Source of the DNA: a virus
Lineage: Duplodnaviria; Heunggongvirae; Uroviricota; Caudoviricetes
Virus record (IMG/VR): IMGVR_UViG_2721755662_000004
Direction: 5' to 3' (one strand)
DNA length: 64,000 nt
The first letter of the stretch is position 1. Each line of letters begins with the position of its first letter. Both the position numbers and the translations under genes were made by a program. Shown here in pieces: positions 16,493 to 18,351 of the stretch. The notes beneath the pieces are model-generated. The model was not told where the DNA came from, made no database searches, and was given only the letters and a program-made list of their open reading frames with translations.

Positions 16493-16604
16493 TTGACAAC
16501 GTCGCGTGTTCGGGGCTATATTCCTCACGCGCCAGCAAAACCTGGCGTCGGGATTAGCACCCCGGATATCGAAACGGTGCATAACCGCGCTGGCGGTTTT
16601 TTTA
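16493..16604 (+). promoter_or_regulatory. Leader cassette: consensus sigma70 promoter, 5' hairpin, intrinsic terminator
   Basis: TTGACA-N18-TATATT at 16493-16522; hairpin CGCCAGCAAAACCTGGCG; terminator ending TTTTTTTATGC about 75 nt downstream; about 160 nt more before the ATG at 16768. Confidence 0.6.
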
Positions 16605-16767
16605 TGCGCTAAGCACAGTCACATTCGCGATTTATGGCGGGCTGTGTGGGGGAGCCGAAAGGCTCGCCGGATGTTTCGACCGGTAGTGCTAACCCCGCAC
16701 AGTTCGCCACCACGATGATTAGCACCTGACGGTGGCGAGGTAAAAATTATCGAAACGCGAGGTCATT

Positions 16768-17433
16768 ATGGCTGTTCAAATTTCTGTCGAAAACCTTTCC
16801 CCTGTTACCTATAACCAGATCCCCGTAATTACTACTGAACTGTTGGCTCACCTTTACGGAACAAAAATCAAAAACATTTCTGATAACTTTCTGAACAACA
16901 CGACGCGATTCATGCCCGGAAAGCATTACTTTAAAATTGAAAAAAACGAATTACGCGAGTTTAAGAACAGACCCGAAACAATCGGGTTAGTTGGTAAAAA
17001 TGCCCGCTCCCTCATCCTCTGGACAGAACGCGGCGCAGCCCGTCACGCAAAAATGCTCGAAACCGATCGGGCGTGGGAGGTATTCGAAAAACTGGAAGAC
17101 TGCTATTTCAGCCAGGGAAAAACAGCACCAACCGAACAGCAGCCGCAGATTCAGCCACAATTCACAGCCGAAGAAATCATCCTCCTTTGCTACATGCAGC
17201 TCTGGATGGAAAAAGCCCAGGACATCAGCAAACACCTGTATCCCATTATGAAAGAGCTGAACTCCTCATACACGAACAAGCTGTATGACATTGCGTTTGA
17301 GACCATCTACATGGTGACGAAGAACAGAGACGCGCTACTGAGGGAGGTAACACGTCTCGACATGTCAAGTTCCGTTATCCAGCGGGCCATGCCAATGCTG
17401 AAAAGCCTGCGGGCAAGACAATTTGAATTCTGA
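16768..17433 (+). CDS. ORF6N-domain antirepressor-family protein
   Basis: N-terminal ORF6N signature ([19 protein letters not shown]); C-terminal about 95 aa identical to the AntA-type protein at 60883..61512. Confidence 0.65.
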   Translation: MAVQISVENLSPVTYNQIPVITTELLAHLYGTKIKNISDNFLNNTTRFMPGKHYFKIEKNELREFKNRPETIGLVGKNARSLILWTERGAARHAKMLETDRAWEVFEKLEDCYFSQGKTAPTEQQPQIQPQFTAEEIILLCYMQLWMEKAQDISKHLYPIMKELNSSYTNKLYDIAFETIYMVTKNRDALLREVTRLDMSSSVIQRAMPMLKSLRARQFEF

Positions 17434-17487
17434 AACTAAAGGAGCTTCGGCTCCTTTTTTGTTGGGAAAATCCAGTGAGAGGGAATA

Positions 17488-17898
17488 ATGAACCAGACTA
17501 TCTTCCTCCGAAGTAAGCAGCAGCAACAATTCGCCATTAACGCCATCCTTGCAACAACTCTCGATAAAGACAAACCCGTTACGATCCGCATCACCGATTA
17601 CAAGCGGAATCTCGATCAAAATGCCAAATTTCACGCGATGGTCGCTGATATCTCCCGACAGGTTCAGTGGTGCGGCAGATGGCTAAAACCAGAACAGTGG
17701 AAAGTTTTGTTAATCAGCGGTCATGCCGTGGCGACAAAACAGGAAGCTGATGTTTTGCCTGGTCTTGAAGGTGAATACGTCAATATCCGCGAAAGCAGTG
17801 CGCAGATGAGCGTGAAGCGTATGGCAAGCCTGATTGAGTACACAACTTCCTGGGCTGTGGAGCAGGGTGTCAGATTTACCGACAGGAGGTATGAATGA
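17488..17898 (+). CDS. ninB: NinB-like recombination protein
   Basis: 136 aa; matches lambda NinB in [38 protein letters not shown]. Confidence 0.8.
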
Positions 17899-18077
17899 GA
17901 CGACAGCGACGAAGCATTACCGATATAGTCTGTGAAAACTGCAATTACCTTCCAACGAAACGTTCCAGAAATAAACCCAGGCCAATCCCAAAAGAATCTG
18001 ACGTTAAAGCCTTCAATTACACGGCTCACCTGTGGGATATCCGGTGGCTAAGACATCGTGCGAGGAAAACAAGGTGA
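17895..18077 (+). CDS. Small hypothetical protein
   Basis: 60 aa, start overlaps ninB stop. Confidence 0.35.
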
Positions 18078-18190
18078 TTGACGTGATGATTTATTCGGGG
18101 CTATATTCCTCACGCGCCAGCAAAATCTGGCGTCGGGATTGGCGTCCTGGATAGAGACCGCGACAGATACACGCCGCGAGCGTGTTTTTT
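18077..18190 (+). promoter_or_regulatory. Second copy of the leader cassette
   Basis: TTGACG-N18-TATATT; first 50 nt near-identical to the 16,5xx copy; terminator ACACGC-CGCGA-GCGTGT plus TTTTTT at 18170-18190. Confidence 0.6.
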
Positions 18191-18351
18191 ATTGTCGTAT
18201 GCACGCGCACATCTGAATTATGGTGGGCTGTGTGGGGGCGGAGAGATCCGCGCCGGTCGGTTTCCCGGTTACGCCAACCCTGCACAGTTCACCACCAGAC
18301 GATTGGCGTCGTCGGTGGTGAGTTATTAAGAAACCACTCGAGGGCGTCATT

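Follow-up and report, generated by a model that had tools for sequence, protein, structure and literature searches.

In the immI locus of phages P1 and P7 (a1 b1-c4-a2 b2-icd-ant1/2), the words a' and b' of the C4 RNA pair with the sites a1/b1 upstream and a2/b2 downstream, the latter at a ribosome-binding site (RBS) ahead of ant (Weinberg et al. 2010, Additional file 1). Competition between a1/b1 and a2/b2 was already suggested by Citron and Schuster in 1990 (quoted in Weinberg et al. 2010, Additional file 1). The excision of C4 by RNase P is documented for P1/P7, and the product is a stable RNA of ~77 nt. At the isrK-orf45-anrP locus of Gifsy-1, one promoter yields the short terminated small RNA (sRNA) IsrK, at whose terminator most transcripts stop, and a read-through mRNA whose translation stays off until IsrK acts on it (Hershko-Shalev et al. 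2016, PMC4825925). In Salmonella, the stretch that follows IsrK is also the source of STnc1160, a stable processed RNA (PMC4825925). Phage P4 is the only system with which the Gifsy-1 study compares IsrK; P1 goes unmentioned there, and Citron and Schuster are not cited (PMC4825925). In a 2025 review, IsrK and c4 appear as items unrelated to each other, and the literature retrieved discusses the two separately. The 64,000-nucleotide virus sequence analyzed here (IMG/VR record IMGVR_UViG_2721755662_000004), which is referred to below as the window, contains two paralogous ORF6N genes, ant1 and ant2, each at the end of a cassette that starts with a promoter-like site. Judged by sequence, the leaders of both genes are copies of the phage RNA switch that has already been described, in which IsrK is followed by a C4-type antisense RNA and then by target sites at the RBS.

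A scan of the window with Rfam at gathering thresholds (isrK, 50 bits; c4-a1b1, 46.7 bits; C4, 45 bits) establishes membership in all three families for both cassettes (Table 1). The isrK model is matched at positions 1 to 77, with the 3' terminator included, and the C4 model is matched over its full length (1 to 87) inside what the original prediction, made from the letters alone, had taken for a GC-rich spacer. Searching RNA families with the leaders, as that prediction proposed, leads to a finding that is genuine yet already known; the leaders match described families that account for them, an outcome that the prediction had itself named as its refutation. The leader is not new, because all three RNA elements belong to curated families, described in 1990, 2008 to 2010, and 2016, and because a close homologue has been dissected experimentally. 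At this locus, IsrK and C4 can be read as two halves of one module, which is a useful clarification that is implicit in the overlapping Rfam families and not a discovery. The residual points of interest, a tandem pair with different addresses and a missing coupling open reading frame (ORF), are minor. The best-supported reading is a merger of the P1 and Gifsy-1 pictures, and each cassette is very probably a self-contained RNA-gated antirepressor unit of the P1/P7 immI and Gifsy-1 isrK type in the nin region of a lambdoid Escherichia coli prophage.

Table 1. Features of the IsrK/C4 cassettes, the sRNA-Xcc1 cassettes, and other prophage genes in the window (SD, Shine-Dalgarno sequence; HTH, helix-turn-helix)
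Feature	Position	Strand	Remarks
Promoter-like site, cassette 1	16493..16522	+	TTGACA-N18-TATATT, 11/12 consensus
c4-a1b1 (RF03163), cassette 1	16516-16568	+	47.4 bits, overlaps isrK
IsrK-like sRNA, cassette 1	16529..16603	+	Rfam isrK RF01394, 74.3 bits
Hairpin 1, cassette 1	16529-16548	+	
Hairpin 2, cassette 1	16549-16564	+	a1 in loop
a1, cassette 1	16554-16560	+	UUAGCAC, hairpin 2 loop
b1, cassette 1	16569-16575	+	UCGAAAC
Terminator stem then U-run, cassette 1	16583-16598	+	scan
C4-type antisense RNA, cassette 1	16630..16714	+	Rfam C4 RF01695, 75.1 bits
b', cassette 1	16673-16679	+	GUUUCGA, C4 P3 loop
a', cassette 1	16686-16692	+	GUGCUAA, single-stranded joining region
a2, cassette 1	16719-16725	+	UUAGCAC; target region 16719..16762
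b2, cassette 1	16750-16756	+	UCGAAAC, ends 2 nt before SD
SD, cassette 1	16759-16762	+	GAGG
ant1, antirepressor-like	16768..17433	+	Pfam ORF6N + P22AR_C; PHROG 377 anti-repressor Ant
Terminator closing cassette 1	17438..17457	+	8-bp GC-rich stem, T-run
Promoter-like site, cassette 2	18078..18107	+	TTGACG-N18-TATATT, 10/12 consensus
c4-a1b1 (RF03163), cassette 2	18101-18153	+	50.5 bits, overlaps isrK
IsrK-like sRNA, cassette 2	18114..18190	+	Rfam isrK RF01394, 75.5 bits
a1, cassette 2	18139-18145	+	UUGGCGU
b1, cassette 2	18154-18160	+	GAGACCG
Terminator stem then U-run, cassette 2	18169-18185	+	scan
C4-type antisense RNA, cassette 2	18216..18299	+	Rfam C4 RF01695, 66.7 bits
b', cassette 2	18258-18264	+	CGGUUUC
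a', cassette 2	18271-18277	+	ACGCCAA
a2, cassette 2	18303-18309	+	UUGGCGU; target region 18303..18344
b2, cassette 2	18330-18335	+	GAAACC
SD, cassette 2	18340-18344	+	GAGGG
ant2, antirepressor-like	18352..19035	+	Pfam ORF6N + P22AR_C; PHROG 377; RefSeq "phage antirepressor Ant"
Terminator closing cassette 2	19052..19073	+	9-bp stem, T-run
Promoter-like site, first Xcc1 cassette	~61786-61746	-	TTGACG-N18-TATACT
sRNA-Xcc1 (Rfam), first	61638-61553	-	
AntA + P22AR_C gene, first Xcc1 cassette	61521-60883	-	
Promoter-like site, second Xcc1 cassette	60873-60844	-	TTGACA-N18-TATATT
sRNA-Xcc1 (Rfam), second	60759-60670	-	
Bro-N + P22AR_C gene, second Xcc1 cassette	60628-59996	-	
Integrase	1-1164		
CI-type repressor	8794-9501		HTH + S24 peptidase
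ninE ORF	17895-18077		cassette 2 promoter begins straight after its stop codon
Q antiterminator gene	20569-21102		

The two promoter-like sites of the cassettes rank best in a promoter and terminator scan that covered positions 15500 to 19500 (4 kb). These near-consensus sigma-70 sites lie where the original prediction had placed them, and the intrinsic terminators that it expected 75 to 90 nt downstream have T-runs ending 75 and 77 nt past the predicted starts at 16529 and 18114. The conserved 5' hairpin is likewise present, and two conserved hairpins are found in each leader. The near-identity described for the first ~50 nt of the leaders runs from ~20 nt upstream of the -10 hexamer to ~+38; over 324 aligned columns, the two leaders are 82% identical, and the differences concentrate in the loop of the second hairpin. 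The distance from the leader T-run to the ATG is 164 nt in cassette 1 and 161 nt in cassette 2, which is slightly longer than the 130 to 160 nt first given for the spacer, and the spacer itself is a structured C4 RNA gene. On comparative grounds, the promoter-terminator layout is not a product of chance, because 72 of 73 homologous phage-contig instances share the two hexamers (-35 and -10), the spacing of 18 nt, and a distance of 74 to 78 nt to the T-run end. Every ant gene also has its own closing terminator, which makes each cassette self-contained. No LexA box or other operator was seen in the promoters by eye, and no formal test was made.

In both cassettes, a1 lies in the loop of hairpin 2, with b1 just 3' of it, b' and a' lie in the P3 loop and the joining region of the C4-type fold, and b2 lies beside the SD sequence of ant itself, at a distance of 2 to 5 nt; in other module types, b2 overlaps the SD sequence. 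The words a' and b' are predicted to be accessible in both C4 folds, with probabilities of being unpaired of 0.79 (a') and 0.69 (b') in cassette 1 and of 0.94 and 0.89 for the two words in cassette 2. A CCA/CCC tail follows the closing stem of C4, which is an indirect hint of RNase P processing. When further C4 targets were searched for in the 64-kb window, only the expected a-b pairs were found, together with a single 9-mer at 43489 that has no b word close by. Compared with shuffled controls, the full leaders form far more stable folds (z = -4.4 and -4.5). In cassette 1, a fold in which a1b1 is paired in cis with a'b' (-109.4 kcal/mol, the minimum free energy [MFE] structure) and the modular fold (-108.1 kcal/mol, the centroid) are nearly isoenergetic, and these two predicted folds echo the switch between structures A and B shown for Gifsy-1 (PMC4825925). 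A local hairpin of cassette 2 between the a2 region and the sequence after the SD was set aside; the SD-proximal sequence is unchanged in members with other a-words, and there is no covariation.

Homologous leaders were collected with the invariant first hairpin as the anchor, by which 120 phage-contig loci were reduced to 83 distinct instances and 73 true members, and formal pair counts were made on 59 distinct leaders (alignment A2). The covariation analysis that had been suggested for homologous prophages establishes a three-way covariation of the recognition words, in which a' covaries with both a1 and a2. In the a1-a' helix, 99.8% of the cells are paired and 5 of 8 pairs are changed on both sides, and in the a'-a2 helix, 99.4% are paired and 4 of 7 pairs are changed on both sides, with no pair in either helix changed on one side only. 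The covariation score was reached by none of 500 shuffles in either the a1-a' or the a'-a2 run, in which the whole structure was tested, and slid registers were only 22 to 53% paired. The helices of the C4 fold itself, in which a long closing stem encloses two hairpins, vary in the same way (P1, 6 of 17 pairs changed on both sides; P2, 5 of 5), with 99.9 to 100% of the cells paired. At the level of words, a' forms cognate Watson-Crick runs of 7 to 8 nt with a1 in 71 of 72 members and with a2 in 69 of 72, compared with average runs of ~3 nt for non-cognate combinations of a-words, and cognate b'-b1 runs average 5.75 nt, compared with 3.55 nt for non-cognate ones. Such three-way covariation requires selection on both the a'-a1 and the a'-a2 pairing.

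The members comprise at least 9 types of a-word and at least 10 of b-word, each matching at all three sites. The a1 loop of hairpin 2 reads AGCAC, GGCGU, GGAAC, GAGAC, UGCAC, AGGAAC, GGUCU, CGCAG, or GGCAU, and every type has its exact complement in the joining region of the cognate C4 and the same word again as a2; a one-base insertion is likewise repeated at all three sites. The b-words occupy the C4 P3 loop (b'), the position just 3' of hairpin 2 (b1), and the position beside the SD sequence (b2), with b1/b'/b2 sets such as UCGAAAC/GUUUCGA/UCGAAAC, UACGGAG/UCCGUA/UACGGAG, AAAAAGG/CCUUUUU/AAAAAGG, and CUGUAAAG/CUUUACAG/CUGUAAAG. Several b2 words are the SD sequence itself, and one from a Lelliottia genome extends over the start codon. 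The module is a mosaic, since a- and b-types occur in different combinations. A few phage-contig copies are irregular: a2 mismatches its own a' in L030 (6407-6652, minus strand) and L094, no ant gene follows a2 in L003, L008, and L094, and no intact C4 is present in L013 and L045. These recombinant or truncated copies may be deregulated or decaying modules.

The two cassettes of the window carry different a and b words, and they are therefore predicted to be largely insulated from each other. At the level of loops, the cognate a'-a2 duplexes (-9.0 and -10.3 kcal/mol) and b'-b2 duplexes (-8.9 and -8.8 kcal/mol) are approximately two-fold more favorable than the cross-cassette ones (-4.9 and -3.3 kcal/mol and -4.5 and -5.4 kcal/mol, respectively). 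Full-length C4-target duplex energies, which ignore the RNAs' own folding, were discarded as uninformative and replaced by these loop-level duplexes and by exact-word tests. Because all three differences between the a-words of the cassettes are transitions, a' of the first C4 (GUGCUAA) can pair through three G-U wobbles with both a sites of cassette 2, and a' of the second C4 (ACGCCAA) cannot pair with UUAGCAC of cassette 1. The insulation is thus predicted to be good yet asymmetric and not absolute. In another phage contig, L011, two IsrK/C4 modules lie 3.2 kb apart (3959-4204 and 7221-7466) and share the a word GGCGU but differ in the b word (UACGGAG versus UCGAAAC), so one shared word appears to be tolerated inside a single phage.

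In Gifsy-1, anrP is translated only when coupled to orf45, the stop codon of which overlaps the anrP start (AUGA) (PMC4825925). In the window, plus-strand ORFs of 31 codons (16634-16730) and 33 codons (18220-18321) start at an AUG within the 5' strand of the stem that closes C4. Across 72 homologous leaders, the C4-stem ORF varies from 8 to 64 codons with shifting frames, and only the Gifsy-1 type has the 45-codon orf45 overlapping the antirepressor start; a conserved small protein equivalent to orf45 or icd was therefore rejected. As neither length nor frame is conserved, the C4-stem ORF is probably not a conserved coding element, and the SD sequence of ant is the probable direct point of control. 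No icd-like ORF, through which repression would spread to ant as in P1, lies between b2 and ant in either cassette.

Taken together with the two known systems, the cassettes would work as follows. A sigma-70 promoter, which is probably constitutive, would fire, and most transcripts would end at the intrinsic terminator to give an IsrK-like sRNA of 75 to 77 nt that displays a1 in a hairpin loop, with b1 just 3' of it. Transcripts that read through would continue into the C4-type RNA, presenting b' in the loop of a hairpin and a' in a single-stranded junction, and then into a2, b2 beside the SD sequence, and ant. Acting as a processed RNA or from within the transcript, C4 may pair through a' and b' with a2 and b2, which would occlude the RBS and keep Ant off in the lysogen; a1 and b1, in cis or on free IsrK, would compete for a' and b' and relieve the repression. 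With distinct words (UUAGCAC and UCGAAAC versus UUGGCGU and GARACC), each C4 would act mainly on its own ant. We infer the transcript ends, the processing of C4, the direction of regulation, and the antirepressor activity from homology. A short leader RNA and conditional read-through, which the original prediction offered as alternatives, both occur at once in the Gifsy-1 homologue and may do so here; what it overlooked is the C4-type RNA and the a1/b1 and a2/b2 sites.

Several points weigh against this mechanism. The promoters, the start sites, and termination at both cassettes are predictions, as is the excision of C4 by RNase P in the manner of P1. In Gifsy-1, the STnc1160/orf45 RNA, which is the equivalent of C4, failed to counteract IsrK when the two were co-expressed, and growth arrest was stronger (PMC4825925), which does not fit a simple scheme in which C4 represses and IsrK titrates. 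The C4-stem ORFs of the window stop 38 nt (cassette 1) and 30 nt (cassette 2) before ant, in contrast to the overlap of orf45 with the anrP start, and because they stop short and are not conserved in length or frame, the published Gifsy-1 mechanism is not transferable unchanged. In cassette 2, the b'-b1 pairing depends on a G-U wobble and the b'-b2 pairing comprises only 6 bp. In addition, the insulation between the cassettes may be incomplete through wobble pairing of a' of the first C4.

One alternative applies the Gifsy-1 model alone, with the C4-like stretch serving only as a 5' structure of the mRNA with a small ORF, a cis lock between a1b1 and a'b' silencing the message, and free IsrK opening it in trans as an activator, with no need for a separate C4 repressor RNA. 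This mechanism was experimentally shown at the homologous Gifsy-1 locus (PMC4825925), the MFE fold of cassette 1 is exactly the cis-paired form, and an AUG is present on the 5' strand of the C4 stem in nearly all members. However, a match of a2 and b2 with a' and b' is not required by this model, although the covariation of a2 with a' is perfect and b2 is located at the SD sequence; the upstream ORF has no conserved frame or stop, and its overlap with the ant start is confined to the Gifsy-1 type; and the stretch reaches the score of a complete C4 RNA, its helices covary, and the homologous stretch in Salmonella gives the stable processed STnc1160. We therefore regard the Gifsy-1 model alone as unlikely, although it keeps a real share of the probability.

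Control of the kind exerted by the P4 CI RNA is less probable still. In P4 immunity (CI RNA, seqA, and seqC), a processed structured RNA, which is an RNase P substrate like C4, also lies between upstream and downstream complementary sites, and the authors of the Gifsy-1 study describe IsrK as structurally homologous to P4 seqA and consider such a mechanism for STnc1160 (PMC4825925). The C4-like RNA would then pair with a2/b2 and with a1/b1, which lie immediately before the IsrK terminator, and its main effect would be on termination and not on translation; it is in line with this that b1 lies 7 to 8 nt upstream of the terminator stem and that an alternative hairpin (16575-16592) overlaps the 5' half of the cassette 1 terminator. 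P4 CI itself works by premature transcription termination and controls replication genes, not an antirepressor RBS. Against control of termination in the window, the a2 hairpin is not followed by a terminator-like T-run, and b2 lies on or beside the SD sequence or on the start codon across very different b-types, which favors control of translation initiation. In P1 immI, translational repression comes first, and transcriptional polarity follows. The Rfam scan of the window reported no P4 family match. An attenuator that senses a ligand or a factor (riboswitch-like or through a protein antiterminator) and chooses between termination and read-through, with the downstream 160 nt as mere spacer, has the classic layout of a promoter running straight into a terminator in its favor, as well as the description of Gifsy-1 IsrK as the product of an antitermination-regulated promoter (PMC7547250), but it is highly improbable, as the Rfam scan gave no riboswitch or leader family and the families matched are trans-pairing RNAs, the spacer is a conserved structured RNA with covariation, and the variable positions are pairing words that covary among three sites and not a ligand pocket.

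The merged P1 and Gifsy-1 reading leaves differences from both parents and from related systems. The Gifsy-1 locus has the same order of promoter, IsrK with its own terminator, IsrK-complementary structured stretch, and ORF6N antirepressor-like gene; its leader aligns with those of the window, is 98.2% identical to one phage-contig member type and 82.5% identical to the leader of the Shiga toxin (Stx) phage VT2-Sakai, and carries the a-word GGCGU that is also found in cassette 2. The Gifsy-1 module, however, sits right after gene Q, whereas the window has two modules in the nin region upstream of Q, and the C-terminal domains of AnrP and Ant1/Ant2 differ. With P1/P7 immI, the cassettes share a C4-fold RNA between two sets of complementary sites, the downstream set at the RBS before the antirepressor gene, and the use of differences in recognition words to set specificity, as in P1/P7 heteroimmunity. 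In P1, which is a plasmid prophage and not a lambdoid one, icd lies between the target site and ant, whereas b2 of the window is at the SD sequence of ant itself; no IsrK-type terminator has been described between a1b1 and c4, whereas the window terminator would release a1b1 as a separate sRNA; and the antirepressors differ in domain make-up from the ORF6N and P22AR_C proteins. In P22, the small RNA sar also blocks the initiation of ant translation, and the window proteins carry the P22 antirepressor C-terminal domain, but sar is a cis-antisense RNA from the opposite strand, and the regulator in the window lies on the same strand upstream of its target. In the APSE phages of Hamiltonella, isrK- and c4-family RNAs lie beside a BRO-family gene and sRNA-Xcc1 lies upstream of an ORF6N gene (PMC7313666); that study is annotation only, and tandem pairs and specificity tests are not reported there.

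The assignment of ant1 and ant2 as paralogous ORF6N antirepressor genes stands, since both products have the ORF6N and P22AR_C domains and fall in the PHROG "anti-repressor Ant" family. In the ORF6N domain, Ant1 is 80% identical to Gifsy-1 AnrP over 144 amino acids and Ant2 is 67% identical over 126 amino acids. The ant2 region is ~93% identical to the ant region of phi24B, whose ant gene, a close homologue of ant2, promotes induction (PMC3064807). As putative antirepressors by domain and family match, Ant1 and Ant2 may bind and inactivate the prophage repressor, and a CI-type repressor gene is present at 8794-9501. Over its last 101 residues, Ant1 is 94% identical to the C terminus of the distal AntA-type protein (60883-61521, minus strand), and the N-terminal domains (ORF6N and AntA) differ, which suggests domain exchange between antirepressor genes within one prophage. 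A third antirepressor-like gene, with a KilAC/ANT domain, lies directly past the cassette 2 terminator (19104-19832, plus strand); in the Rfam scan of the window, no match to IsrK, C4, or Xcc1 precedes it.

At the right end of the prophage, two further antirepressor cassettes of the same design (59996-61790, minus strand) carry sRNA-Xcc1 instead of C4, with a promoter-like site, a short RNA with a T-run, sRNA-Xcc1, and an antirepressor-type gene in that order. The first Xcc1 RNA contains UUUCGAG, which is complementary to CUCGAAA found both upstream and downstream, and the second contains GUGUUCA and CUUUCGA, which are complementary to UGAACAC and UCGAAAG at both sides, with the downstream UCGAAAG running into the SD sequence. 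Among 111 distinct phage-contig sRNA-Xcc1 instances, cognate words of at least 7 nt are present upstream in 85% and downstream in 87%, compared with 18% and 15% for non-cognate combinations. The C4 clan of Rfam does not include sRNA-Xcc1. Together, the a and b words may make up a combinatorial address of two parts that lambdoid prophages reassort among themselves, with this prophage holding four separately addressed cassettes and sRNA-Xcc1 being a functional analogue of C4 with its own a1b1 and a2b2, a tentative view to which we give somewhat less than an even chance. If it is true, the match or mismatch of addresses between co-resident prophages would decide which of them silence or wake each other's antirepressors. 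The highly diverse, reassorted words also provide ready-made natural orthogonal RNA switches and a possible route of cross-talk between co-resident prophages.

The window is a lambdoid E. coli prophage, which also contains Cro-like, CII, and replication genes, and ninB and ninE separate the two IsrK/C4 cassettes. A 2.65-kb query spanning both cassettes is identical in nine complete genomes, including FORC_069 and ML35, and the exact tandem arrangement is found in nine complete genomes and one IMG/VR contig (L026). Parts of the query are present in 2,398 of 5,426 complete E. coli genomes (median, 2 places per positive genome; maximum, 11) and in 480 phage records, mostly of Escherichia, Stx-converting, and Salmonella phages. 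The RefSeq annotation of the two-cassette stretch shows only protein genes, which gives the RNA modules an annotation value, as their parts are common in E. coli genomes and in hundreds of phage records. A scan of genome representatives gave only 13 loci, and the regular-expression parser missed Enterobacter copies, so that the taxonomic range is outlined only roughly. The 22-nt anchor also matches Enterobacter genomes (L124 to L127, L132, L134, and L135), in which the parser did not recognize the remainder of the module, and a scaffold assigned to the actinomycete Yinghuangia sp. (L129), which may be contamination.

Just upstream of cassette 1, a toxin-antitoxin-like cluster (14477-16393) includes a hok/sok locus (Rfam sok, 14477-14651; hokD in RefSeq), a Fic/Doc "death-on-curing" toxin (15200-15694), and an HTH/RelE-ParE pair (15745-16393, minus strand) that diverges from the cassette 1 promoter. 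Approximately 340 nt downstream of the Q gene, a full-length Rfam STnc100 match (21441-21646, plus strand; 165 bits) occupies the position of a late-promoter leader transcript.

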